Positions 1 through 14,321 of a stretch of 54,025 bases of DNA are shown in pieces (positions within the stretch are counted from its first letter, which is position 1; each line of letters begins with the position of its first letter). The position numbers were made by a program, and so were the translations under genes. The notes below the pieces were generated by a model, which did no database searches, was not told where the DNA came from, and worked only from the letters and a program-made list of their open reading frames with translations. Location of the stretch: IMG/VR virus record IMGVR_UViG_3300008448_000113, positions 1 through 54,025 of that record, one strand, 5' to 3'. The DNA is from a virus (lineage: Duplodnaviria; Caudoviricetes).

Positions 1-1785
1 CCCATCGGAGTCATAGGGTCATCGGGATCTACGGGTCCAACGGGTGCAACGGGACCACAAACAATCACTGGAACCGCGGGTGTGCAGGGAGTTAGTGGTG
101 TTGCGGGTACTGCTGCGACGGGTGTACAAGGACCAACCGGACCTGTAGGTTCTACCGGACCAACGGGACCGTTGGGATATTCGGGTTCCACGGGCGTACA
201 GGGTATTACAGGTGTTACAGGGTCTACTGGACCATTAGGTTCAACAGGTCCAACGGGTGCAACAGGTGCGATAGGTCCGAGTGGACGGCAAGGAATTCAA
301 GGTATTACCGGTGTGATTGGTGTAACCGGTCCTTCTGGAGATATCGGTCCAACTGGACCCATAGGAATAACCGGACCAACTGGAGTAGGCCCCGCTGGGT
401 CAACTGGCCCTGTGGGAGAATCGGGACCGATAGGATCACAAGGAATTAGAGGAGCAACTGGACCTACCGGTGCGGCAGGACCATCGGGAAGTACAGGACC
501 AAACACATTCGGTGGTGCGGGAATTTCTGGACCAACGGGTGCAACGGGTGTCATCGGTGTAACAGGTCCAACAGGTGCACAAGGACGAACGGTATATTAT
601 GTTACCGGTGTTTGTGCGGCGGTCCACGCAAATGCAACCACAACGCATACCGACACAACAGTATATCACAGTGATACGTCAACTCCACATGGTAATTCTG
701 TTGCACATTCCAACATAACCATCGCAGGGTCACACGCTAATATCGCTGCATCACACACAGATTCAACAGCACATACGAACGCAACTACTACACACGGTGA
801 TGGTACCACAACGCACACAAATAGTAGTATTGCGTTTACAAACACGACTGCTCATAGTAACATTTCACCATCGCATAGTGATATTATCACTCACACAAAT
901 ATTTCCACAATTCACGGAGATGGTACACCACATACTAATATTGCGGCATCACACGCAAATGAAGCTGCGGTTTCACATACAGATAGTGCAACGCATTATG
1001 ATGGTGCTACGGAATTTGTTAATATTACCACACACTTCGATGTAGACCCATCACACGTAGATGGAGTACCTCACACAAACGTAAGTCCATTTCATGCAGA
1101 TGAAGCACCATCACATTCAAATTACGCAGCATCGCATGCAAATATCGCAGGTAATCATACCGATACAACCAATTTACACATAGATTACTATCTTGGTATT
1201 GACCCTGTTACGCACGGTGATACTCCTGCTAGTCACGCAGATATCACATCACCACATACAAATTATGCAGTACCGCATTCCGATGGGACTTCAAATCATT
1301 CAGATATAACAGTACCGCATTCCGATATCACAACGCATGCAAACACATATAGTACTCATTATGATCAAATAGCACATCAAGATACTGTAGCAAGTCATGC
1401 AAACTTTGTTGATCATTCTGATATCGTTGCTATACCACATTCCAATGAAACAACAAACTTTACAAATAGTGTTGTGCATACGGATATTCCTGCAACACAT
1501 ACTAATATTGCATCGCATGATGATATTACCATAACTCACACGGATATTGTGACACATACTAATATTACAGCGACTCACACCAATATAACGCCGTCACATG
1601 CAAATATATCTCCGTCGCATGCAAATGCAACACCACATACAAATATCAATATATCGCATGACGATATTACTATTACTCCAAGTCATACTAATGCAACACC
1701 ACACACAAATATTACCACCGCACACTCAAATGTAGCAGCATCGCATTCAAATGTCGCGGCATCACATTCGAATTCTACCACGTAA
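1..1785 (+). CDS. Collagen-like fibre protein with C-terminal HxD/N repeat array (5'-partial)
   Basis: Frame is open from base 1 ([15 protein letters not shown]...), so the true start lies upstream of the window. Gly-X-Y (GPT/GST/GAT) repeats run to about 585. H-x-[DN] motifs then recur every 6-9 aa from 625 to 1773. Confidence 0.85.
625..1773 (+). repeat. Coding HxD/N repeat array 1
   Basis: Units such as [14 protein letters not shown] and HANISPS; roughly 55 units estimated from length and period. Confidence 0.9.
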
Positions 1786-1790
1786 TCATT

Positions 1791-2639
1791 ATGCCACGTT
1801 TTTTTCCGCTTGGTACACCAACTACCGCTAGTATAGCCAAAGCAGCATTATTTGCGTTTACTGCAAGTATTGCTTTAAACGCAAATGTACTCACTGCATC
1901 ATTTGCTTCGGGTTCTGTTGGTGTGATGGGAGTTGGAGGACCAACCGGTCCACGAGGACCAACAGGAATATCTGCTTCTGGGTCCACTGGACCGACCGGT
2001 GCAACTGGACCAACGGGACCGGCAGGTGTAGGACCAACGGGACCGTCCGGTGTGATAGGAATAACGGGTATTACAGGAACCACAGGACCAACAGGATCTA
2101 CGGGTCCAACCGGTGCAACGGGACCAACCGGACCAACTGGAATAGTCGGTATTACAGGACCAGTTGGTCCAACGGGTATTGGGTCATTAATATCGGGAAG
2201 TACTGGTGTACAAGGTTCTACGGGAGCAACAGGTCCAACAGGTACACGAGGTGCAACGGGAGTAACAGCGGGTGTCATTGGTATTACTGGTGCTAGTGGA
2301 TTGGCAAATATTATTGGTCCTACGGGACCGGTAGGAGCAACAGGACCTACTACCATCGGTGGAACAGGACCAACCGGACCACAAGGGTCTGCAGGACCAG
2401 TTGGACCAACGGGACCGAGTGCAGACGCACCATTAACAGGTTCGTTGGGTGTTGGAGGTATTACGGGAATTCAAGGACCAACCGGAGCACAAGGTATTCG
2501 TGGAGCAGACGCAGGATGTCCAGCAGGAACCGTAGTATGTACGGGGTTATCCCCATCCAATACATCATTGTATGGATTGGTATGTGCAACATTACCAACT
2601 GGATGTGGTGGTAGTTTTACATGCCCACCGACAATCTAA
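1791..2639 (+). CDS. Collagen-like protein with Cys-rich C-terminus
   Basis: Gly-X-Y (GPTG) repeats, a hydrophobic Ala-rich N-terminal segment, and 5 Cys in the last ~40 aa. Confidence 0.85.
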
Positions 2640-2679
2640 ACTACTTATATAAGATAAATTGATTACATCGGAGTGATAA

Positions 2680-5289
2680 ATGCCAAAAGCACCAGGCAGT
2701 GTATGGGTAAGTGGAACAGAATTTCATTTTGTCGATAATACGGGTGTAGAATACTACTATATCGGTACATCGGTAGGAACTCCTGCCGGTGCAGTGCCTG
2801 GTTCTATTTGGGTCGATAGTAGTGATTTTCATTATATCGATTCGTCGGGAACGGATAGATTAATTGCAAGTACCGACTTAGGAGCAGTATCAGGAGCACG
2901 ACCAGGATCAGTTTGGGTAGAAAGTACTTTTTGGAATTGGATATCATCGGGTACAAATAAAAGAAGAGGACACACTGATGTTGCTGCAAGTCATACCGAT
3001 TTAACAACTCCCGCCGCACATACAAATGCAACTACCGCATTTGTTAATTCTACTATACCCGCATCACATACCGATGGTACTACAGCTCACACCGATGCAA
3101 CTACCACGGCATCACATAGTGATGCCACTACAACACATACGGATTTAACTACCCCCGCATCGCATAGTGATGGTACAACCCCTCATAGTGACGGAACAAC
3201 CCCCGCATCGCACAGCGATGGTACCACACCACATAGTGATGCCACAACAACTGCGTCGCACAGTAATGCAACAACACCTCACAGTGACGGTACAACCCCT
3301 GCGTCACACAGTAATGCAACAACTGCACATAGTGACGGTACAACTCCTGCATCACACAGCAATGCAACAACTGCATTTGTTAATTCTACAATAACAGCAT
3401 CGCACAGTAATGCAACAACAGCATTTGTCAATTCCACCGTACCTGCATCACATAGTGACGGAACAACTCCACATAGTGATGCTACCACACCAGCATCGCA
3501 TAGCGATGGAACAACTCCGCATAGTAACGCCACAACAACTGCTTCACACAGTGATTTAACAACACCATTTGCTAATTCTACCACACCAGCGTCGCATAGT
3601 GACGCAACTACAACATTCGTTAATTCCACAATACCTGCATCACATAGTGACGGAACAACTCCACATAGTGATGCTACCACACCAGCATCGCATAGTGATG
3701 CGACGACATCACATAGTGATGCTACAACACCCGCGTCGCATACAAATTATGCAACGCATTCTAATATAAGTACTCCACATGCAAATGCCGCATCGTCGCA
3801 TAGTGATTTCGCATCACATTCAAACGTGGCAGCTTCACATGGAAACGTAACCGGACATGCAAATACAGCTGCATCACATACCAATTATGCAACACATGCC
3901 AATGCCCCATCGTCGCACGCTAATATTATAGCACACTCAAATCAAGCGGCAAGTCATACTAATTATGCTACACATGCAAATGAAGCACCTACACACACTA
4001 ATTATGCAATACACGCAAACACACCAGCCGATCATAGTAATACGTACACCCAACACGGAAATACTCCAGGAAGTCATTCCGATACAACTATTATTCACGT
4101 AGATTATTATTTTGGTTTTCCAGAAGAAGCTCACGGAGATGTTCCGGCCAGTCATGCAGACACTTCGATAACACACGACGATGGGCCAGCGTATCATAGT
4201 AATTATGCAGCACCTCATTCAAATTATGCATTACATGGTGATGATACAATCTTCCATTCGGATGATGCATCGCATGGTGACGATACAATCTTCCACACAA
4301 ATTATGCAACGCACGATGATTCTACAAATCCCCACACAAATTATGCAACGCATGGGGACGATACAATCTTCCACACAAATTATGCATCACACACAAACTC
4401 ATCTGATCCTCATGCAAATATCATAAATCATTCTGACGGAACTACACCACATGCAAATACTTCCCCGTCACATGGAAATCAAACACCGCATGGTGATGCA
4501 ACAACCAACCCAAGTCACACCAATATCAGTCCTTCGCATTCGGATGGAACAACACCGGCAAGTCACGCGAATATTGTAGCATCACACTCAGATATAACTA
4601 TAAATTCAAGCCATACAGATATTGCGGCATCACATGCAGACGCAACAACGAATCCAAGCCACACGGATGTTTTGGCATCACATACGGATGGAACAACACC
4701 AGCAAGTCATTCAAATATTAGTCCATCGCATGCAGACGCAACAACTAATCCGAGTCATGCAAATATTAGTCCATCGCACTCGGACGCAACAACGAATCCA
4801 AGCCATACTAACATTGTTGCATCGCACTCCGATGGAACAACACCGGCAAGTCATACAGATATTGCTGCGTCACATTCCAATGCAACAACGCCAGCAAGTC
4901 ATGCAAATATAGCATCTGCACACACCAACGCAACCACAAGTCCAAGTCATGCAAATATTACCCCGGCACACACCAACGCAACCACAAGTCCAAGTCACGC
5001 AGATATTGTCGCATCACATTCTGATGCGACAACACCGGCAAGTCACGCGGACATCGTTGCTTCGCACTCGGATGGAACAACCCCCGCAAGTCACACAGAT
5101 ATTGCCGCATCACACTCTGACGGAACAACACCGTCGAGTCACGCAAATATCGCAGCATCACATTCCGATATAACCATTAACCCAAGTCATACAGATATTG
5201 TTGCATCACACGCGGACGGAACAACCAATCCAAGTCACAGTGATGGAACTACGGTGCACAGTGACCAACCTGTACTTGTTGGGGCTTGA
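2680..5289 (+). CDS. Giant HxD/N repeat protein (putative fibre, putative radical SAM substrate)
   Basis: N-terminal ~95 aa contain three PGS[VI]WV repeats, followed by ~765 aa of H-x-[DN] repeats. Confidence 0.85.
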   Translation: MPKAPGSVWVSGTEFHFVDNTGVEYYYIGTSVGTPAGAVPGSIWVDSSDFHYIDSSGTDRLIASTDLGAVSGARPGSVWVESTFWNWISSGTNKRRGHTDVAASHTDLTTPAAHTNATTAFVNSTIPASHTDGTTAHTDATTTASHSDATTTHTDLTTPASHSDGTTPHSDGTTPASHSDGTTPHSDATTTASHSNATTPHSDGTTPASHSNATTAHSDGTTPASHSNATTAFVNSTITASHSNATTAFVNSTVPASHSDGTTPHSDATTPASHSDGTTPHSNATTTASHSDLTTPFANSTTPASHSDATTTFVNSTIPASHSDGTTPHSDATTPASHSDATTSHSDATTPASHTNYATHSNISTPHANAASSHSDFASHSNVAASHGNVTGHANTAASHTNYATHANAPSSHANIIAHSNQAASHTNYATHANEAPTHTNYAIHANTPADHSNTYTQHGNTPGSHSDTTIIHVDYYFGFPEEAHGDVPASHADTSITHDDGPAYHSNYAAPHSNYALHGDDTIFHSDDASHGDDTIFHTNYATHDDSTNPHTNYATHGDDTIFHTNYASHTNSSDPHANIINHSDGTTPHANTSPSHGNQTPHGDATTNPSHTNISPSHSDGTTPASHANIVASHSDITINSSHTDIAASHADATTNPSHTDVLASHTDGTTPASHSNISPSHADATTNPSHANISPSHSDATTNPSHTNIVASHSDGTTPASHTDIAASHSNATTPASHANIASAHTNATTSPSHANITPAHTNATTSPSHADIVASHSDATTPASHADIVASHSDGTTPASHTDIAASHSDGTTPSSHANIAASHSDITINPSHTDIVASHADGTTNPSHSDGTTVHSDQPVLVGA
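2971..5265 (+). repeat. Coding HxD/N repeat array 2
   Basis: HSDGTTP/HSDATTPAS-type units with 7/9 spacing in the outer arms and 6/7 spacing in the inner arms; roughly 100 units estimated. Confidence 0.9.
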
Positions 5290-5314
5290 CAAATAGTTAA
5301 CTTAGTAGTATATT
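5286..5314 (+). promoter_or_regulatory. Sigma70-like promoter upstream of the radical SAM gene
   Basis: TTGACA-N17-TATATT, followed by an AGAGG Shine-Dalgarno before ATG 5347. Confidence 0.8.
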
Positions 5315-5346
5315 AAAGTTTGATTCATTAAAAGAGGTTTTATTAT

Positions 5347-6648
5347 ATGACAATTGAGTTAGAACCAGTTGGAGTAGTATGTAATTTAAGTTGTCCATAT
5401 TGCTATGAACATCCGATGCGTGATGCTGGAAACTTTCGGCATAAAACGTATAGCGTCGAAAAGATGTTACAGGGATTGGAACGTGAGGGTGGTCACTTCA
5501 CATTATTTGGTGGTGAACCATTATTAACGGATATTGACGATTTAGAAACCATTTTTAAATGGGGATACGAACGTTACGGTGGTAACGGTATCCAAACAAA
5601 TGGTACGTTAATAACCGAACGTCATATTGAAATGTTTAAAAAATATAAAGTGCACGTGGGTATTTCCGTGGACGGACCAGATGATATGAATGATACTCGT
5701 TGGGCTGGTTCCTTGGAAAAGACACGGGAATCCACACAGAAGTCCATGCATGCTATCAAACGATTGCTGGATGAAAAAATGTCAATGGGTATTATTATTA
5801 CTGTCCATAAAAAGAATGGATTGCCCAAGTATAGAGAACGATTTAAAAATTGGATTCGGGAATTAAAATCTTGGGGAGCAGACGGCGCACGATTACATCC
5901 GTTGGAAGTTGATCATAGTGCTGTTGGTGAGACGTTGGCATTGTCGTCTGAACAAAATATAGAATTTTTGTTGGACATGTGGGAATTTGAAATTTCCGAA
6001 TTGAAGGGAACATTTACCTTTGATATTTTCCGTGACGTAGATTATATGATGCGTGCAGCGGATAATAGTGCAACGTGTACATTCTTGGCATGTGACCCAT
6101 ACACAACACACGCAGTACAGGGAATTGATTCACAAGGTAATCAATCAAATTGTGGTCGTGGTAATAAAGACGGTATCAATTGGATTAAAGCCCAATATGA
6201 CGGATTTGAACGACAAATGGCATTGTATCACACCCCAGAAGAACATGGTGGTTGCCAAGGATGTAGATTCTTTGTAATGTGTAAGGGGCATTGTCCGGGT
6301 ACTGGATTGGATATGGATTGGAGAAATAAACCAGATTCGTGTCTAAGTTGGAAAGTTTCATTTGGTATTTATGAAAAGTTGATGTTGAAACGAGGTGAAA
6401 CACCGTTATCATTACATCCAGACTTAAAGAAATACGAAGAGTTAATGTTACACGGATTCAGCCGTGGGGTTGAATTACGTTTGTCTCAAATCAAAAAACA
6501 TTTGGAAACGGGATATAATCTCGACGCATATATAGAAGCAACATTGGAAAACATGAGACGAGGATTTCCAAAACCACACGCCGACCACACAGATAATACA
6601 GGCAAATATAAACAAGAGTATTTTGAGAAGTACGGTATAGAACTTTAA
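5347..6648 (+). CDS. Radical SAM/SPASM-domain peptide maturase-like enzyme
   Basis: CNLSCPYC (CxxxCxxC), FGGEPL, QTNG and ISVDGP motifs. C-terminal Cys cluster CTFLAC...C...CQGCRFFVMCKGHCPG...C is SPASM-like. Confidence 0.9.
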   Translation: MTIELEPVGVVCNLSCPYCYEHPMRDAGNFRHKTYSVEKMLQGLEREGGHFTLFGGEPLLTDIDDLETIFKWGYERYGGNGIQTNGTLITERHIEMFKKYKVHVGISVDGPDDMNDTRWAGSLEKTRESTQKSMHAIKRLLDEKMSMGIIITVHKKNGLPKYRERFKNWIRELKSWGADGARLHPLEVDHSAVGETLALSSEQNIEFLLDMWEFEISELKGTFTFDIFRDVDYMMRAADNSATCTFLACDPYTTHAVQGIDSQGNQSNCGRGNKDGINWIKAQYDGFERQMALYHTPEEHGGCQGCRFFVMCKGHCPGTGLDMDWRNKPDSCLSWKVSFGIYEKLMLKRGETPLSLHPDLKKYEELMLHGFSRGVELRLSQIKKHLETGYNLDAYIEATLENMRRGFPKPHADHTDNTGKYKQEYFEKYGIEL

Positions 6649-6666
6649 AACATAAGAGGATATGTT

Positions 6667-7050
6667 ATGGAAAACGGAATATTACACGCAGACCACATTG
6701 ACGAAACTGGTGCATACGCACGACGATTTCAAGTTGTTAAGGAGTTGGTAGACAATGGAACATTGACACAAATTCCAGAAGAATTTCGTGTAGGTGCAAC
6801 CGCATTATCACAGCAGGAAGTAGTTCCTGTTACACAAGAAAATTCCAAATTTTCATTTTATGATGAGTTTGGTCAAAAGCACGCAGACCACGTAGATGAA
6901 ACGGGTGAGTATCGTAAAGCATGGGAATCCATGTTTGGTCCTATGAACGGGGATAATAATGTATCATCCGAAGATACTCCTGCAAATACCGAATGGAAAT
7001 CGTTCCTACAACAGTTAATTGCAGAAGAAAAAGCAAAACTCAATATTTAA
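6667..7050 (+). CDS. Small acidic protein with two HADHxDETGxY motifs
   Basis: AGAGG SD; the motif is shared with the radical SAM C-terminus. Confidence 0.75.
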   Translation: MENGILHADHIDETGAYARRFQVVKELVDNGTLTQIPEEFRVGATALSQQEVVPVTQENSKFSFYDEFGQKHADHVDETGEYRKAWESMFGPMNGDNNVSSEDTPANTEWKSFLQQLIAEEKAKLNI

Positions 7051-7066
7051 TTTTAACCCAAAGGTT

Positions 7067-8539
7067 ATGCAACGTTTAAATAGTGTATTACCAGATTGGA
7101 CACGAATACAGTGGACCAACATGGAAAATAAAATAAAGTATGGTCCAATTTTAAATTCCATAACACATGCGTGGAAACAAATTGAACGAATGTCTGTTGT
7201 ACACGATTTACGATCCTGTACATTAGATAGTATTAGTTCCACGGAACTTATAGCACTGACAGAAGAATACAAGAAATACGGTGTGTACATTGTTCCATTG
7301 GCAAAGGAAGGAATAACACACACATATTCTTCTACAACACAACCATATATTAACGGTAAACCCTATCGTTTGCGTGTGGTGTTTACAAAGTCGGAAGAAC
7401 TGGCACAAGAATTTTTCACGGTGTGGAATGCACCGGTGCTGGATAATTCCCGAATTGGTGAACTTCTTGGGTATCCAAAGTGTTGTACCGATTTTTATAA
7501 AAAGTATTGGGTTGATCAACGATTTGTAGATACTACGTGGGTAATGTCGGTTGATAAATTACCAATTGACGAAGAGGCACGAACCGTACATATTAAATCC
7601 GACACACCACCAGAATGTAATATTTTGTGGCGTTGGCAGGGTGTACGATTGGTTTCGCATTTACCATGTTCATTTGATTGTGAACATACGGTTGATATTG
7701 GTAGACGAAATGCAGAACTTGGACGTAAACTTGGATTCAATGCTGAAATGGATTTGGCATACGAGTTGTTGACTTGGCCTGTGGAATGGTCTGCGTTACA
7801 CGGTATTGCGGAAATTAAAACGCCAATCAACAAAGTATCCTCACGTACAGATATGACACCGTGGAAATACACAGTACAAAAACATAGTGATATGTATCCA
7901 GAAGATGGCGCATCGGGTACCATGTATCCGTACACAGAAAAGAAACTCAAGATTAAACCAATAACTACAACTAAGTCGTTTTTGAAATCACTTGAAGATA
8001 CATCTGTTTGGGAAGAAAACGGATTCCGTTACAAGGAAGCAATGGATCATTTTCACGAAGTGGTAGTTGAAGCAATTGGTAATATGAAGTATGTACCTTC
8101 GGGTAATGTCCTTGACCTTGGTTGTGGTAATGGTGTATTGTTAGGTCGTGTTGTTGGAGACAGAGCAGACTTAATTCCACATGGTGTTGAAATGGACCGT
8201 CAACGATGTATGTCGGCAGCAACCACTATCCATTGGGGATATTTCACGTTGGGTAATATATTCGACCTCAATACATGGAAGGAAGATTATTATAGTATGG
8301 TGCTGTTGATGCCAGGACGTTTGATGGAAACTGCAAAAGAAACGGCAGAGGCATTCAGAAAACAATTATACGATAAGACAGACTTACTACTTATTAATCT
8401 GACATGTGATTGGACTGTTAAGTATAAGACTATCGATAATATGATGGTGTTAACCGGTCTAGACAAAGATTGGGAACCGGCTGGTCCTGTTGTACATAGA
8501 AAGGATGATGTCGCTCAATTATTTAAGAGGAAAGTGTAA
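7067..8539 (+). CDS. Cys-motif (DUF483-like) domain fused to a class I SAM methyltransferase
   Basis: GELLGYPKCC and HLPCSFDC motifs; C-terminal VLDLGCGNG. Start refined to ATG 7067 after AAGG. Confidence 0.7.
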   Translation: MQRLNSVLPDWTRIQWTNMENKIKYGPILNSITHAWKQIERMSVVHDLRSCTLDSISSTELIALTEEYKKYGVYIVPLAKEGITHTYSSTTQPYINGKPYRLRVVFTKSEELAQEFFTVWNAPVLDNSRIGELLGYPKCCTDFYKKYWVDQRFVDTTWVMSVDKLPIDEEARTVHIKSDTPPECNILWRWQGVRLVSHLPCSFDCEHTVDIGRRNAELGRKLGFNAEMDLAYELLTWPVEWSALHGIAEIKTPINKVSSRTDMTPWKYTVQKHSDMYPEDGASGTMYPYTEKKLKIKPITTTKSFLKSLEDTSVWEENGFRYKEAMDHFHEVVVEAIGNMKYVPSGNVLDLGCGNGVLLGRVVGDRADLIPHGVEMDRQRCMSAATTIHWGYFTLGNIFDLNTWKEDYYSMVLLMPGRLMETAKETAEAFRKQLYDKTDLLLINLTCDWTVKYKTIDNMMVLTGLDKDWEPAGPVVHRKDDVAQLFKRKV

Positions 8540-8540
8540 T

Positions 8541-8759
8541 ATGAATGATATAATTCCTGTCCCACTAGCAGTAAAATTATTGATTGAGTCGCACAAAGAA
8601 AAAGTTGACCAATCATTAAAAAATCTCACCGACGCTAATTTGGAATTAATGCAAATGTTAAATTTGTTACCATCGGAAGGATGGAGATTAGACATAGATA
8701 ATTTCAGATACGTCCGTATACAGAGTACTTCTATTGATGAACCTACACCCGTCGAGTGA
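8541..8759 (+). CDS. Hypothetical protein
   Basis: Fills the gap between two genes; ATG follows an AGAGG SD. Confidence 0.6.
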   Translation: MNDIIPVPLAVKLLIESHKEKVDQSLKNLTDANLELMQMLNLLPSEGWRLDIDNFRYVRIQSTSIDEPTPVE

Positions 8760-10629
8760 ACGAGTAATCTTCACCTGGGGAAGATTTAAAGGACACTCCT
8801 TAGCACATGCTGCGAGGAGTGTTCCTTCGTATCTAGAATGGATGTCAGGTCAAGAAGGATTACCCGAAGCGTGGCGTATTGCTGCCGCAAAAACTTTATT
8901 GGGTGAGGATATCGATGATTTGGACTTACCAAGAACCAGTTCCCCTACCATATCTTATAAAAATTTACCAGATACAAAATCCGATACTGTCGAAGTCATT
9001 TTAGTTGATAAAAAGACGGCGGCTGTTATCATGCCATATAATAAAACTTTATTGGCAAAATTTAAATATGAAATTGATGGTCGTAAATGGAACAATGATG
9101 AAAAGCATTGGGAATTTCCAATTGTACATTTACCAAAGTTTTTTTCTGTATTTCCTGATGCAAAATGTAAACCTGACGTATTAAAGCGATTGGAAGAATT
9201 AAAAACTCGTCGTCAAGACTTGGATGAAATACGACAGCAAGAGGATACGGAATTTAAAATCAAGGGTATGAAGTTAGACTTATATCCCTATCAAAAGATT
9301 GGTGTACAATTTGTGGATAGAGCAGGAGGTCGTTGTCTTATTGCGGATGCACCTGGATTAGGTAAGACCGTACAAGCGATTGCATACGCACAACATCATA
9401 ATTTAAAAACTATTATTGTGTGTCCTTTGTCCGTGGTAATCAATTGGCAACGTGAAATTAAAAAGTTTACCGGAAAGGAGAGTACTATATGGGATTCAAA
9501 GGGGTATGACGGTAAACTCGGAAATCAATTTCATATTACACATTATGATGCTGTTTCTAAAAATAATCATTGGCTTCGTGACCAAAAGTTCGATTTACTT
9601 GTGTGTGACGAAGCAACCTATCTTAAGAACCGTCAAACAATTCGTGCAAAAAGTGTCTTGGGTTCATACAAAGAGCGAAGAAAATATCCAGGTATTAAAA
9701 CCAAGTATAGTATCTTTCTTACCGGAACTCCTGTCATGTCTCGTCCTATTGAGGCGTTTTCATTATTAAACTTTTTGGACAAAGAACGATTCAATAATTT
9801 TTATCATTTTGTAGAACGGTATGGTGGATGGAAAGGTGATGCTCCTCGTAACTTACAAGACCTCCACGATCGTACTAAAGATTTGGTCATACGTAGAAAG
9901 AAAAGTGAAGTATTAACCGAACTTCCATCAAAACAACGAAATGATTTGTACGTAGAATTATCAAAAGACGAAAACAAAGAATATCAAAAATTATTAAAAG
10001 AAGTATTTGGTAAATGGAAGTTGGAAGGAAGACCATCTGTCACCCATATGCCAAAACTACAAGCGTTTTTGATACAACAGAAAATGCCACGATTGATAGA
10101 AATGATTGATGAATTTCTAGATAACGATAGACCTATATTAATTTTTAGTTGTTATATTGCTCCCTTGAAGTATTTGTTAAATCATTATGGTGACAAAGCA
10201 GCAATATTAACGGGGGAAATGAATAGAAATGACCGTCAAGAAACTATCGATAAATTAACGAGTGGACAAGCCAAGGTAGGATTATTCAGTCTCCGTGCCG
10301 CGGGTATGGGTATCGATGGATTACAAAAAGTTATCGATACCGTTGTATTTATCGATATGGATTGGACACCAGCAAACCATGAACAGGCCGAGGACCGTAC
10401 ACACCGTATAGGACAAACCAATCAAGTGCAGGCGTACTATATGATGTGTCAGGATACGATAGACGAATATATGCGGGACATTCTACGGGAAAAACAACAA
10501 GTCGCTGACCTTATTGTTGACGGGGCTTTGGTCACCCCTGAAAGTAATAAATCGTTTTTTAAAGAATTTGTTCGTAGAATTAATAAGGTGTACGATGGTG
10601 GTTTTACCGAAGAAAATATCACAGACTGA
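8737..10629 (+). CDS. SNF2-family (SF2) helicase
   Basis: DAPGLGKT, DEAT, LTGTP and QAEDRTHRIGQ motifs; N-terminal FTWGRFKG...PSYLEW module. Confidence 0.9.
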   Translation: MNLHPSSERVIFTWGRFKGHSLAHAARSVPSYLEWMSGQEGLPEAWRIAAAKTLLGEDIDDLDLPRTSSPTISYKNLPDTKSDTVEVILVDKKTAAVIMPYNKTLLAKFKYEIDGRKWNNDEKHWEFPIVHLPKFFSVFPDAKCKPDVLKRLEELKTRRQDLDEIRQQEDTEFKIKGMKLDLYPYQKIGVQFVDRAGGRCLIADAPGLGKTVQAIAYAQHHNLKTIIVCPLSVVINWQREIKKFTGKESTIWDSKGYDGKLGNQFHITHYDAVSKNNHWLRDQKFDLLVCDEATYLKNRQTIRAKSVLGSYKERRKYPGIKTKYSIFLTGTPVMSRPIEAFSLLNFLDKERFNNFYHFVERYGGWKGDAPRNLQDLHDRTKDLVIRRKKSEVLTELPSKQRNDLYVELSKDENKEYQKLLKEVFGKWKLEGRPSVTHMPKLQAFLIQQKMPRLIEMIDEFLDNDRPILIFSCYIAPLKYLLNHYGDKAAILTGEMNRNDRQETIDKLTSGQAKVGLFSLRAAGMGIDGLQKVIDTVVFIDMDWTPANHEQAEDRTHRIGQTNQVQAYYMMCQDTIDEYMRDILREKQQVADLIVDGALVTPESNKSFFKEFVRRINKVYDGGFTEENITD

Positions 10630-10667
10630 TATTTATATAAAGTATTTACAATATAAGGAGTTATTTT

Positions 10668-11414
10668 ATGTCAAATGTTACATTCCCTACGGAAATTATC
10701 GATTTACCAAGTAAAGGGAAATTTTATCCAGTAGGGCATCCACTGGCGTCTGGGCAAGTTGAGTTAAAATATATGACCGCCAAGGAAGAAGATATTTTAA
10801 CTTCTACAAATCTTATTCAAAAGGGTGTTGTTTTGGATAAACTAATCGATAGTTTGATTGTTACCAAAGGTGTTACCCACGAAGATTTTCTAATTGGGGA
10901 TTTAAACGCAGTCATGGTTGCAGCACGTATTCTTGGATACGGTAAGGACTACGAGATGTCGATTACGTGTCCTAAGTGTAATACAGAACAAGATCATGTT
11001 GTAGACTTAACTGAGTTGGATACAAAGGAATTATCCGAAGATGCAAGTTTGTCATTCAAACTACCAGCGAGTGGTAGGACGGTCAAAATTCAACTAATGA
11101 CACGTAAGTTGGAAAAAAATATAGATAAAGAATTAACGGCTATTAAGAAGGTGGGATTACAAGTAGAACCAGAAGCATCCACTCGTCTTCGTTATATTAT
11201 TTCGGAAGTTGATGGTGTTTCTGATCAAAAAACTATTCGTGAAACGGTAGAAAATATGTTAGTACGTGATACCAAGGCACTTCGTGACTTCTATAAGTCT
11301 GTCACGCCGGATGTACAATTTGAATCTATTTTTACATGTTCAAATTGTTCACATACCGATAAATTGCCAATCGGTATCGGCATTAACTTTTTTTGGCCTG
11401 ACGCAAGAGTATAG
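10668..11414 (+). CDS. Baseplate hub / tail assembly chaperone (T4 gp26-like)
   Basis: LPSKGKFYP, MTAKEEDIL, two CxxC pairs, NFFWP ending; lies upstream of the tape measure gene. Confidence 0.7.
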   Translation: MSNVTFPTEIIDLPSKGKFYPVGHPLASGQVELKYMTAKEEDILTSTNLIQKGVVLDKLIDSLIVTKGVTHEDFLIGDLNAVMVAARILGYGKDYEMSITCPKCNTEQDHVVDLTELDTKELSEDASLSFKLPASGRTVKIQLMTRKLEKNIDKELTAIKKVGLQVEPEASTRLRYIISEVDGVSDQKTIRETVENMLVRDTKALRDFYKSVTPDVQFESIFTCSNCSHTDKLPIGIGINFFWPDARV

Positions 11415-11589
11415 GTTAGCGGTACATAAAGTCATTTTTTCTATGATATATTATGGAAAGGGTGGCTTTACATTCCAAGATTTATATAATATGCCCGTGT
11501 TCTTGCGCGGCTTCTATTTGAAGGAAATGAACGACGCAGTAGAAAACCATAATGCAGAGATAGAAAAAATTAAAAATAAAACTAGATGA
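11389..11589 (+). CDS. Tail chaperone extension (gp51-like), probably reached by +1 frameshift
   Basis: The +1 frame reads FFGLTQEYR...YNMPVFLR from the T7 run at 11388-11394; no SD-supported start. Confidence 0.6.
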   Translation, partial: FFGLTQEYRLAVHKVIFSMIYYGKGGFTFQDLYNMPVFLRGFYLKEMNDAVENHNAEIEKIKNKTR

Positions 11590-11597
11590 GATAATCA

Positions 11598-14321
11598 ATG
11601 GCGATAGATGATAATCTTGATTTTAGAGATCAAGTCAAAAAAGCAGAGTTTGAAAAACTAGCACAGAATTCCAGAAGTCTTGCCGCTAATCTATCAGCTG
11701 CCAGTAAAGAATCAAATAATTTTATACAACGGTTAATATTAAATAACAAAGCTATCTCTGCACAACAAAAATCTATCTCACAACAGTTAATCGCGGATAG
11801 AGCTCAATTAAGATTAAATACTGAACGGTCCCGTTTATTACAAGACGACAATAATAGATTAAAACGACTAATACAACAAAAAAAGGCAGAAGCTGAATTA
11901 ATAGCCACCACGGGAAGAGATTCTCGTGGACGATTTAGGGGTGCCGCTGACATCGATAGATTGTCTACCGAGGCCAACACATTAACGTCACAATACCAAG
12001 GTCAAGTTTTAACGCAACGATCGTTAATGGCAGAATCGGAAGGATTGGAACAAAGTATGAGTCAATCCGGTAAGGAATTAAAAGGTTTGAAGATGCAAGG
12101 CATCGCTATGGCTGCGCAAGAAATATCCAAGGTCATTAAACAGTTTGCCGATGCAATGGCACAATTGGTAAATCTTATATACAAAACACAACAAGATTTA
12201 ACAGTACAGATGGGTACTGCGACCGACGTATTGTTCGATGCGCAGATGAATGTTATACAATCGTACATGCCGTTTAGCGGTGGTCCAATACTTAATAGAG
12301 ATGAAATTGTAAATGCATTTTCGAGTTTTAAGAAAGAATTTGGAACAATATTATCGTCGGAAGAAGCAACACGTATTGCAGCGGAATCTAAAAGATTAGG
12401 TATTTCATCTGACACGTATGTAAAGGCTAGACGAGCATTCTTGGGAACTGGTAATGCAGAAACCGTTAGAATGCAAGCAATGGCAGAATTCCAGAAACAA
12501 GGATTATCTGCCGGCGCAGCATTACAATATGCGGCGGAAAATGCCGATTTATTAGCAATTGCCGGTGATAAATACGCAGATTCATTATTTAAAGCGGCAG
12601 CGGAATCCAAGAAGATTGGTGTTAATCTTCGTGATATAGAAAAATTTGCAAATAGTCTTGTTGGTGACTTTGAAGGATCATTAGAAAATTTCGCTGAATT
12701 AAGTGCCCTTGGTGTTGAGATGGACTTCAACAAATTGGCAGAAGCTGCGGCTACCGGTACACCGGAAGAAATGCAAGCGGTACTCAAAGAACAATTAAGT
12801 TTATCGGGTATTACTGGTGAAGAATTACAACGAAATCGACAACTTAGATTATCACTATCACAAACCACAGGTCTAGACGACGCAAGTATATTACGATTGG
12901 CGGGTGTTGTACAACAACCAACAGAACAAACGGTTGAAGAAAAACAAGTAACACTCCTATCCAGTATATCAGAAAACATAGCAAAACTAACTAGAATATT
13001 TGCTGTAGCGGCTGGTATAATTGGCGGTGGTCTTGCCGGATTTGCTGCTAGTGGAGGAAACCCATTTGGTGCGATAGTTGGTGCAATCACAGGTGGTTAT
13101 GCTGCTACGAAGTTTGCAACCGGTGGATTTGTACGTGGGGCAGGAACATCAACTAGTGATAGCATTCCTGCGATGTTATCTGATGGTGAATACGTATTAA
13201 ATGCTGGTGCGGTTAGAAGTTTGGGTGTTGATACATTGAATAGTTTAAATTCAATGAAACCAGACGGTATTTCTGACGATGACGATACCATGTATCTAAA
13301 ACGTGGTGGTCCGGTAAAGAAGAAACGGAAAGCAAAACTAGAAAAACCAACAGAACCACAACCTGAACAATTTACCTTACTTGGAAAAACCTACAATAGA
13401 ATCAATAAAGATATTCCAACGTGGGCGGAAAAGGCATTAATTTTATCAATTTCCGCTGCGGGACGAGTCGCATCAGCTTTTTCACAAGATCCAAAGGCCG
13501 ATATATTCAAACAAGCTGTATTGGACAGACGAACAAAACCATTCACAGAAAATGATTTTTCAGCTGAAATGTTGGACAGTTTGGCGATGTTATATGCTAC
13601 TCTACCAAAACCAAAAAATGCAATACGTGATTATAATAGTTACAAAAATGCAAAACAAATGCTTTCTGGCTTCGGTAATGTAGCAAAAAATATTAATGAG
13701 TGGGAACTGATAATAGGTAGAGCTAATATTAGTAAATCAAAGACCGGTGTAAAATTTTCCGACGTTTATGATTTTAATGATTATGAATCCTCTAAGTGGC
13801 TTTCGTCCAAGGGACGAAGTAAAGACGAAGGTATTCTTACCAAATGGGGACTCGACGTTGCGGGAAATAGAAAAATTGGGATATCAAATATAATGTCGTG
13901 GTTGGGTAGACGAGCATTACCTGGTGATGTGGGTGGGGTTCCCGTAGAAGTACAACTCAATAATGACCAATTAAAAGTTGCAAAAAGTCAATTGAAGTCT
14001 GTGGGATTACCGAAAAAACACGCAGGTGGACTTATCGGTGGTCAAGGTGAAGTACCTACCATGTTGGAGGCTGGTGAATTCGTAGTAAGCGCCAAAGCTA
14101 CACAAGCGTATGGAAGTGATATGTTAGGTAAAATAAATACTGGAGCATACGCACAGGAACAACCTGTTGTTAATAACAATGTAAAGGTTGACACTGGTCG
14201 ATTGGAAGCAAAAATGGACAATTTAGTTTCTGCAATACGATCCATGAAAGTTGAAATGAATGGTTATGAAGTTGGTCATGTCTCGTTTAATGAAGCACGT
14301 ACACCACTACGAGTAAGATAA
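11598..14321 (+). CDS. Tape measure protein
   Basis: Long Ala/Gln-rich helical protein with a Gly-rich hydrophobic segment and FATGG...SDSIPAMLSDGEYV motif; follows the chaperone pair. Confidence 0.75.
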   Translation: MAIDDNLDFRDQVKKAEFEKLAQNSRSLAANLSAASKESNNFIQRLILNNKAISAQQKSISQQLIADRAQLRLNTERSRLLQDDNNRLKRLIQQKKAEAELIATTGRDSRGRFRGAADIDRLSTEANTLTSQYQGQVLTQRSLMAESEGLEQSMSQSGKELKGLKMQGIAMAAQEISKVIKQFADAMAQLVNLIYKTQQDLTVQMGTATDVLFDAQMNVIQSYMPFSGGPILNRDEIVNAFSSFKKEFGTILSSEEATRIAAESKRLGISSDTYVKARRAFLGTGNAETVRMQAMAEFQKQGLSAGAALQYAAENADLLAIAGDKYADSLFKAAAESKKIGVNLRDIEKFANSLVGDFEGSLENFAELSALGVEMDFNKLAEAAATGTPEEMQAVLKEQLSLSGITGEELQRNRQLRLSLSQTTGLDDASILRLAGVVQQPTEQTVEEKQVTLLSSISENIAKLTRIFAVAAGIIGGGLAGFAASGGNPFGAIVGAITGGYAATKFATGGFVRGAGTSTSDSIPAMLSDGEYVLNAGAVRSLGVDTLNSLNSMKPDGISDDDDTMYLKRGGPVKKKRKAKLEKPTEPQPEQFTLLGKTYNRINKDIPTWAEKALILSISAAGRVASAFSQDPKADIFKQAVLDRRTKPFTENDFSAEMLDSLAMLYATLPKPKNAIRDYNSYKNAKQMLSGFGNVAKNINEWELIIGRANISKSKTGVKFSDVYDFNDYESSKWLSSKGRSKDEGILTKWGLDVAGNRKIGISNIMSWLGRRALPGDVGGVPVEVQLNNDQLKVAKSQLKSVGLPKKHAGGLIGGQGEVPTMLEAGEFVVSAKATQAYGSDMLGKINTGAYAQEQPVVNNNVKVDTGRLEAKMDNLVSAIRSMKVEMNGYEVGHVSFNEARTPLRVR

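Follow-up and report, generated by a model that had tools for sequence, protein, structure and literature searches.

Why does a tailed phage encode a radical S-adenosylmethionine (SAM) enzyme directly beside two very large repeat proteins of its putative tail fibres? The question is raised by the first 8.5 kb of the 54,025-nucleotide stretch of viral DNA analysed here (positions 1 to 54,025 of IMG/VR virus record IMGVR_UViG_3300008448_000113, Caudoviricetes; hereafter the window), in which six close-set genes, labelled A to F, encode two proteins with H-x-[DN] repeats (A and C), a collagen-like protein (B), a radical SAM enzyme with a SPASM domain (D), a small protein (E) and a fusion of a DUF483 domain to a methyltransferase (F). 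A preliminary description of this DNA had proposed that the locus resembles the systems behind RiPPs (peptides that the ribosome makes and that are modified after translation), with the enzyme cross-linking the repeats of the fibre proteins many times over. We find that the H-x-[DN] repeats are probably the substrate of D. That the locus represents a three-part protein-modification module within a phage tail-fibre gene cluster is, in our judgement, an evenly balanced proposition, and we would give an even chance to the predicted product, a crosslink (staple) from the aromatic residue to the C-beta of the third residue of the motif (X3) at many sites of the virion fibre.

The repeat arrays and their enzyme

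The preliminary description had put the number of H-x-[DN] motifs in the two proteins at about 150, and the count is exactly 150 (53 in A and 97 in C). These motifs account for 150 of the 152 His residues of both proteins: all 53 in A and 97 of 99 in C, where the remaining two lie in the N-terminal domain. Position +2 of the motif is either Asp (25 in A, 55 in C) or Asn (28 in A, 42 in C), with no other residue in any of the 150, and the spacing from motif to motif is nearly always 6, 7 or 9 residues. The arrays consist of T, S, A, H, D, N, P, I, G and V; K, R, C, M and W are absent, and nine F-x-[ND] units (four in A, five in C) stand in register among the His motifs. The DNA underlying the repeats matches at just 58–91%, and the motif is therefore maintained by selection and does not reflect recent duplication. 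Among all other open reading frames (ORFs) of the window (stop-to-stop, at least 60 amino acids), none has more than four H-x-[DN] motifs.

Judging from collagen repeats, PHROG matches and gene position, A and C are likely to be virion fibres. The fusion of one array to a collagen stalk, noted in the preliminary description, is recovered in A (Table 1), and matches to PF01391 and to the tail-fibre family phrog_5073 were obtained for both A and B. Protein C had no match in PHROG, and a query of the ESM Atlas with its N-terminal domain returned scores of 0.87 or lower, at most a lead. Protein B is probably a fibre component, and its place in the module is judged from its position; it contains no His at all, and its Cys-rich end holds 6 Cys within the last 45 residues.

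Enzyme D has exactly 11 Cys residues, three in the radical SAM triad CxxxCxxC (residues 12, 16 and 19) and eight in the SPASM region (residues 244–332). The latter include a CxxCx5Cx3C core (CQGCRFFVMCKGHC, residues 303–316) that aligns to the SPASM core of the sulfatase-maturating enzyme anSME, and all 11 Cys are invariant across 23 homologues. Searched against the NCBIfam hidden Markov models (HMMs), D passed no curated cut-off (16–80 bits vs cut-offs of 268–450). Its best match, near full length, is the anSME model TIGR03942 (80.2 bits vs a cut-off of 349.45), followed by DynA, AmcB, YhhB, PapB, GrrM/OscB, FxsB, DarE and XyeB (42–77 bits). Scores for models of the families that form three-residue cyclophanes in short peptides (triceptides) were far under their cut-offs (XyeB 42.3 vs 450, GrrM/OscB 53.2 vs 310, FxsB 46.5 vs 370, YhhB 66.1 vs 445, AmcB 67.6 vs 425), as were those for HxsB (29.9 vs 370) and HxsC (16.5 vs 267.9). 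A profile search of PDB sequences placed anSME (4k36) first (E 9.6e-20), with ChlB (9gm3), a triceptide synthase, in second place (E 2.2e-11). The nearest characterised relatives of D (anSME, DynA, AmcB, YhhB, PapB, GrrM/OscB, FxsB, DarE and ChlB) all act on proteins or peptides, and no family of DNA-modification enzymes is found among its 25 best NCBIfam matches, generic radical SAM similarity aside. The Pfam matches of the eight scanned proteins include no sulfatase family, although no search aimed at sulfatases was made. Because no NCBIfam model was passed and the nearest matches are anSME and peptide maturases, we place D, from its sequence matches, in a separate family within the protein- and peptide-modifying SPASM group. 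The earlier expectation that the enzyme would fall near such maturases stands in this sense; D is not a member of any named triceptide, HxsB/C or anSME family.

Conservation of the module and of its repeat unit

A tblastn search of 50,697 phage records with the enzyme matched 16 records, of which only three were close, those of the Thermus phages phiLo, Cumys and phiMa (enzyme identity 48–51%). In Cumys and phiMa, a 343-amino-acid protein with an N-terminal domain of the C type and 53–54 H-x-D motifs is encoded upstream of the homologous radical SAM enzyme, and a DUF483 protein downstream of it; the module lies at the end of the row of baseplate and tail-fibre genes, with Cumys_13, which shares the N-terminal domain of C, in the tail module of Cumys. 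The module ranges from the 37% GC phage of the window to Thermus phages. In phiLo, three H-x-D proteins are encoded 4 kb from the enzyme. There, the position directly upstream of the enzyme is taken by a transposase of the IS605 type, which is annotated as two pieces (L001, 7815–8944), and the H-x-D proteins are displaced to the other strand.

For a wider comparison, loci were drawn from genome contigs (80) and viral contigs (77), both found with an alignment of 23 enzymes, and from the three phage records. The phmmer scores split cleanly into a family (at least 130 bits, 90 loci) and an out-group of other radical SAM enzymes (less than 70 bits, 70 loci), and 85 full-length family enzymes collapsed at 90% identity into 63 clusters. 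Motif linkage was scored by windowed counts, since a whole-ORF rule (at least 6 motifs and at least 3%) misses short peptides and the C-terminal tails of long proteins. A DUF483 gene adjoins the enzyme in 82 of 90 family loci (59 of 63 clusters) vs 0 of 70 out-group loci, and an ORF within 3 kb with at least five H-x-[DN] per 40 amino acids is found in 72 of 90 vs 0 of 70. When Phe motifs are counted with His motifs (at least seven per 60 amino acids within 5 kb), the linkage holds for 53 of 63 family clusters vs one of 70 out-group loci, in phages and bacteria alike, and bears out the co-occurrence that the preliminary description had predicted; the lone out-group case (L042) is a spurious, antisense low-complexity frame. 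Of the ten clusters under this threshold, five still show H-x-D units in short peptides or in tails (L004, L005, L012, L014 and L020), four are on contigs cut beside the enzyme (L015, L097, L101 and L105), and only L022 is without a convincing repeat neighbour. At least five H/F motifs per 60 amino acids are found in 82 loci; in 40 of these the gene immediately upstream of the enzyme is the repeat gene, and in 14 the repeat gene is the immediate neighbour of DUF483.

Bacterial partners are often peptides of 90–200 amino acids (88–214 in some relatives) in which H-x-D units come after a twin-arginine-type signal, which suggests that these small repeat proteins are exported modified peptides; elsewhere the repeats form the C-terminal tail of a protein of 875–1377 amino acids. 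In the cyanobacterial locus L004, the H-x-D peptide is encoded 166 bases upstream of the enzyme. Small proteins with the signal R-R-x-L-I/L-x-A-G-W and 2–19 H-x-D units were noted at L004 (7353–7937), L010 (12772–13203), L014 (12216–13019) and L020 (12244–12537).

The family as a whole is large: when 1.84 billion representatives were searched with a profile, 425 matched at E <= 1e-30, each a cluster at 50% identity. Among the best 150, 37 are fusions of radical SAM and DUF483 domains, and 58 of the 86 unfused full-length enzymes carry at least two H-x-[DN] motifs after residue 370 (maximum 25, in P0250). Within the fetched loci, the motif is found in the last 90 residues of 57 of 91 family enzyme ORFs vs 3 of 70 out-group ORFs. 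Through these fusions the enzyme is tied both to DUF483 and to the motif. In P0250, P0271, P0294, P0307 and P0256, the enzyme C-terminus is fused to H-x-D arrays of 15–25 motifs, so that the enzyme and its presumed substrate are on one polypeptide. Some family enzymes (P0316, P0357 and P0289) are interrupted by an intein or by a homing endonuclease domain of the LAGLIDADG type, and one (P0245) is fused to DUF4213/DUF364, described in Pfam as 'putative heavy-metal chelation'.

The nature of the repeat unit emerges from the homologous fibres. The N-terminal domain of C is common to 43 distinct proteins adjoining homologous enzymes, the arrays of which run from 54 His and 0 Phe motifs through 27/21 and 6/39 (L102) to 2/100 (L104). 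The Phe residues fall in F-x-[DNQS] (39 of 43 in L102, 100 of 105 in L104), in five-residue P-F-x-N-T units in L102 and in F-x-[NQS] units in L104, and relatives close to the window (enzymes 74–76% identical) carry 13–21 Phe motifs next to 24–31 His motifs. The repeat period varies across homologues from 3 to 9 residues, with only the aromatic ring and X3 conserved. In a Fulvivirga genome (L016, roughly 7000–9994), the gene directly upstream of that of the enzyme encodes a 990-amino-acid protein with H-x-K units, not H-x-D, at its end. Because Phe replaces His in homologous fibres and one bacterial relative has H-x-K, the unit is read as aromatic-x-X3 and not as a metal pair; on the sequences compared, it consists of an aromatic ring and, beyond a small spacer, a third residue that has a C-beta hydrogen, which is the substrate logic of triceptides and not that of a metal ligand pair. 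As in triceptide systems, the enzyme gene has beside it genes for candidate substrates that carry aromatic-X-X3 motifs. The unit fits the published motif definition, in which His-C2 is bonded to the C-beta of X3 on HAA, HNR and HTK, and the same work describes HtkB as taking Phe and Trp instead of His at position 1 (PMC11499958). The preliminary reading of the motif as His/Phe to Asp/Asn agrees with this interchange at position 1.

A second phage system, apparently independent, was encountered at L152 (6131–11089) and also at L153–L157. Here a fibre-like protein of 412–513 amino acids with 11-residue repeats (Y-S-D-[H/W/F]-T-N-T-G-Y-x-x) is directly followed by three radical SAM genes, without DUF483. 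Two of the three enzymes are SPASM proteins closest to DynA and anSME (152 bits, under cut-off).

The genes of the locus are listed in Table 1. As in the preliminary description, the fibre genes are followed in order by the CxxxCxxC and SPASM enzyme, the small HADHxD protein and the methyltransferase fusion, all on the + strand, which holds every long ORF of the window; the gaps between the six genes are 5, 40, 57, 18 and 16 bases. For F, the start at 7067 is more likely than the alternative TTG. The GC content is 46% in the first 4 kb and drops to about 37% further on. Beyond F are encoded an SNF2 helicase and a tape-measure-like protein, together with proteins of replication (UvsX-like recombinase, DnaB-like helicase, ribonucleotide reductase and DNA polymerase). 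The SNF2-family helicase (phrog_62, E 4e-111; 8734–10629) is oddly located for a helicase, between the fibre and enzyme cluster and the tape-measure-like protein (11598–14321). The record has an estimated completeness of 29%; megablast of bases 1–12000 against phage records gave no match, and a search for tRNA genes in the window found none.

Table 1. Genes A to F at the start of the window, with the features of their products.
Gene product	Coordinates	Strand	Features
Fibre protein A (putative)	1..1785	+	594 amino acids, 5' end outside window; collagen-like stalk at residues 2–197 (PF01391, E 1.9e-22); phrog_5073 tail fiber (E 1.1e-53); array from residue 209 (base 625) with 53 H-x-[DN] and 4 in-register F-x-[ND]
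Collagen-like protein B	1791..2639	+	Cys-rich C-terminus; no His, no motif; PF01391 (E 1.2e-19); phrog_5073 tail fiber (E 1.2e-28)
Fibre protein C (putative)	2680..5289	+	869 amino acids; N-terminal domain of about 95 amino acids with three G-S-x-W-V type repeats (bases 2680–2964); array from residue 98 with 97 H-x-[DN] and 5 in-register F-x-N
Radical SAM/SPASM enzyme D	5347..6648	+	CNLSCPYC at residues 12–19 (bases 5380–5403); eight more Cys at 244–332; HADHTD in C-terminal tail (bases 6577–6594)
Small protein E	6667..7050	+	127 amino acids; two H-A-D-H-x-D-E-T-G-x-Y motifs (bases 6685–6702 and 6880–6897)
Protein F	7067..8539	+	DUF483 at residues 1–290; class I SAM methyltransferase at about 320–490, VLDLGCGNG at 348; alternative TTG start at 7019

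The two motifs of protein E read HADHID and HADHVD, and the tail of D carries a third copy, HADHTD; all four His residues of E lie in H-x-D. Protein E matched no family in Pfam, NCBIfam or PHROG, and its homologues among the fetched loci are confined to close relatives (L084–L096). In the DUF483 domain of F, residues C139, C140, D155, C201 and C205 are invariant and H198 and H245 nearly so, a Cys/His/Asp set that suggests a metal or Fe-S site. The structure model of this domain is confident (predicted local distance difference test score, pLDDT, 95) and has no neighbour at E <= 0.001 (best PDB match NleE, 0.069; best BFVD match 0.051); a query of the ESM Atlas returned just the clusters of DUF483 itself. 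When full-length F was searched with Foldseek, every match was a class I methyltransferase, RNA and small-molecule methyltransferases among them. The methyltransferase half is missing in the versions of the Thermus phages Cumys and phiMa, and we therefore regard it as accessory or optional.

Competing readings of the repeats

For the staple, we posit that D would act together with the DUF483 domain of F, its fusion partner in many relatives, to take a hydrogen from the C-beta of residue three of each motif and then bond that carbon to the ring of residue one. The outcome would be a three-residue cyclophane at many or all of the approximately 150 sites, formed before or during fibre assembly, with the methyltransferase half of F providing further, optional decoration; the gain, more speculatively, would be a stiff fibre that resists heat and protease. 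A predicted complex of D, the DUF483 domain, the first 150 amino acids of C and three 4Fe-4S clusters had a score of 0.01 and a mark of 0.32, with the fold of the partner itself uncertain, and gives no answer either way.

Several points weigh against this reading, some of which favour one or other of its rivals. Known triceptide substrates are short leader-core peptides, whereas those proposed here have 594 or more and 869 amino acids and no universal leader. The presence of the motif in the tails of the enzymes themselves lacks an explanation if the motif is the substrate. There is some redundancy among the family loci, which were drawn by way of the enzyme from two collections, and the counts given above are not counts of independent events. 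The models of the cyclophane families score 42–68 bits vs cut-offs of 310–450 and largely cover only the N-terminal, radical SAM half of D, and the single best full-length match, in HMM and PDB searches alike, is anSME, which is a C-beta oxidase and not a crosslinker.

The last two points also speak for the main rival to the staple, namely that D recognises the same repeats and performs other chemistry on them: L-to-D epimerisation, an anSME-like oxidation of Asp or Asn at C-beta, another change to ring or backbone, or a change that is then methylated by the fused methyltransferase. The fusion of DUF483 to a methyltransferase in most relatives is consistent with such a route, and in the HXS system a radical SAM pair is described as placing +8 Da, not -2 Da, on a His-containing repeat (PMC13128918). 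However, the interchange of His and Phe at position 1 (with Trp in the second phage system) and the variety of X3 (D, N, Q, S or K) are expected if the ring is one partner and the C-beta hydrogen of X3 the other, and less so for epimerisation or a side-chain-specific oxidation; nor do the repeat regions contain Cys or Ser-x-P-x-R type targets. We consider this rival unlikely, though it is the one to which we would turn first.

Beta-solenoid fibres ordinarily show aromatic stacks and Asn ladders, and for this reason the motif alone demands no modification. The repeats might accordingly be purely structural, stacking rings and Asn/Asp ladders in a beta-solenoid or triple-helical fibre, while the radical SAM, DUF483 and methyltransferase proteins modify DNA or a small molecule and merely travel with the fibre genes. 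The methyltransferase domain does have RNA and small-molecule methyltransferases among its structural neighbours, and a paper on pelagimyophages reports radical SAM cassettes within host-recognition clusters and gives no function for them. The preprint on phage Cumys proposes DNA modification for the module, noting cyanobacterial homologues beside deazapurine DNA-modification genes (bioRxiv 10.1101/2024.08.14.607894), a further point against the staple. Yet the linkage of motif and enzyme persists in bacteria in which the partner is not a fibre (the small signal peptide-bearing proteins and large-protein tails described above), cyanobacterial locus L004 included, and many relatives carry the motif within the enzyme polypeptide. 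The near relatives of D, moreover, act on polypeptides, with no DNA-modification family among its best matches. A purely structural role with an unrelated enzyme is therefore improbable, clearly more so than a different modification of the same repeats.

In the fibre tip of phage T4 gp37, seven H-x-H motifs bind iron. A comparable metal-stapled trimer, in which three His and three Asp/Asn per layer bind an axial metal and the radical SAM and DUF483 proteins serve metal delivery or redox, would draw on H-x-D as a classic metal-ligand pair, on His/Asp-rich enzyme tails that look like those of metallochaperones, on the chelation domains fused in P0245 and on the invariant Cys/His cluster of DUF483, but it is very improbable, because Phe, which cannot bind metal, stands in register inside the window's own arrays and almost wholly replaces His in homologous fibres with homologous enzymes (L104 and L102), so that a T4-like metal fibre is not a general explanation, and because the Asn, Gln, Ser and Lys seen at X3 bind metal poorly or not at all and no known metal-insertion role needs a SPASM radical SAM enzyme.

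The RiPP-like reading as a whole is partly supported. Those of its proposed tests that can be run in silico come out in its favour; D, on the other hand, lies outside every named family, and the substrate status of the repeats and the crosslink are read from sequence. Extended beyond this phage, the reading would be that virions and some secreted bacterial proteins contain RiPPs on the scale of whole proteins, up to about 1400 amino acids, in which a dedicated SPASM enzyme, partnered by DUF483, puts in place tens to about 100 cyclophanes, one per 5–9 residues, to give a covalently laddered fibre. Such systems would be widespread (425 clusters) and would have arisen at least twice in phages. 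We advance this generalisation tentatively, at somewhat less than an even chance.

The stapling of side chains by radical SAM enzymes is known from short secreted peptides, and here the same substrate logic appears some 150 times in two fibre proteins of one phage. If the staple is real, chemistry otherwise found in peptide antibiotics would serve the construction of virus particles, as a new kind of post-translational modification of the virion and a natural route to hyper-stable protein filaments, carried out by a large untapped enzyme family that would be processive on very long substrates. Dozens of phage contigs and bacterial genomes carry the module, together with the uncharacterised DUF483, the fold of which has no solved neighbour. 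The 'rSAM module' published for Thermus phages, which had been guessed to modify DNA, would be re-read, and Cumys and phiMa, with Thermus thermophilus HB8 as host, provide cultivable systems.

Comparison with known systems

A close parallel in substrate logic is with the triceptide synthases (XyeB, GrrM/OscB, FxsB, YhhB, HaaB, HtkB and ChlB), which are likewise radical SAM and SPASM enzymes encoded beside a repeated aromatic-X-X3 substrate. For these, published work documents the bond from His-C2 to C-beta, with His, Phe and Trp usable at position 1 and a variable X3 (D, N, K, A or R) (PMC11499958). Unlike them, D fails all of their HMM cut-offs, has an obligatory DUF483 partner and is phage-encoded, and its candidate substrates are structural proteins of 350–1400 amino acids with up to about 100 sites, in place of short leader-core peptides.

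The HXS anti-phage system (HxsA–D) also pairs radical SAM maturation with a tandem His-x-small-residue protein; the change maps to the His motif, and a small partner binds the enzyme (PMC13128918). It differs in having five H-x-S repeats vs about 100 H-x-D/N here, in being a bacterial defence effector and not a phage fibre, and in its reported change of +8 Da at a single site (PMC13128918).

With anSME (PDB 4k36), the best full-length HMM and PDB match, D has in common the CxxCx5Cx3C core and the pattern of eight Cys, and anSME, too, modifies a protein side chain at its C-beta. However, D reaches 80 bits vs a cut-off of 349, its partner is DUF483, and the repeat regions are without the Cys or Ser-x-P-x-R targets of that enzyme. 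The T4 gp37 tip resembles the proposed fibres as a trimeric phage fibre with a regular His-x-ligand motif; here His gives way to Phe in relatives, a dedicated radical SAM enzyme is linked, and there are about 100 motifs, not seven.

The locus of the window is a form of the 'rSAM module' of Cumys and phiMa, described in the only paper on the module that we found as an enzyme, DUF483 and one protein of unknown function, with prophage and cyanobacterial copies noted (bioRxiv 10.1101/2024.08.14.607894). The terms 'histidine' and 'RiPP' are absent from the main text of that preprint, and for radical SAM-modified phage fibres or H-x-D repeat proteins we found no title or abstract in the literature covered, which left out subscription journals and supplements. 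The likeness to the window is extensive, comprising a homologous radical SAM enzyme (48% identity), a DUF483 protein and, as the third protein, one with the N-terminal domain of C and an H-x-D array. The locus of the window differs in that its arrays are far longer, one of them fused to collagen, and in the addition of a methyltransferase and of protein E.

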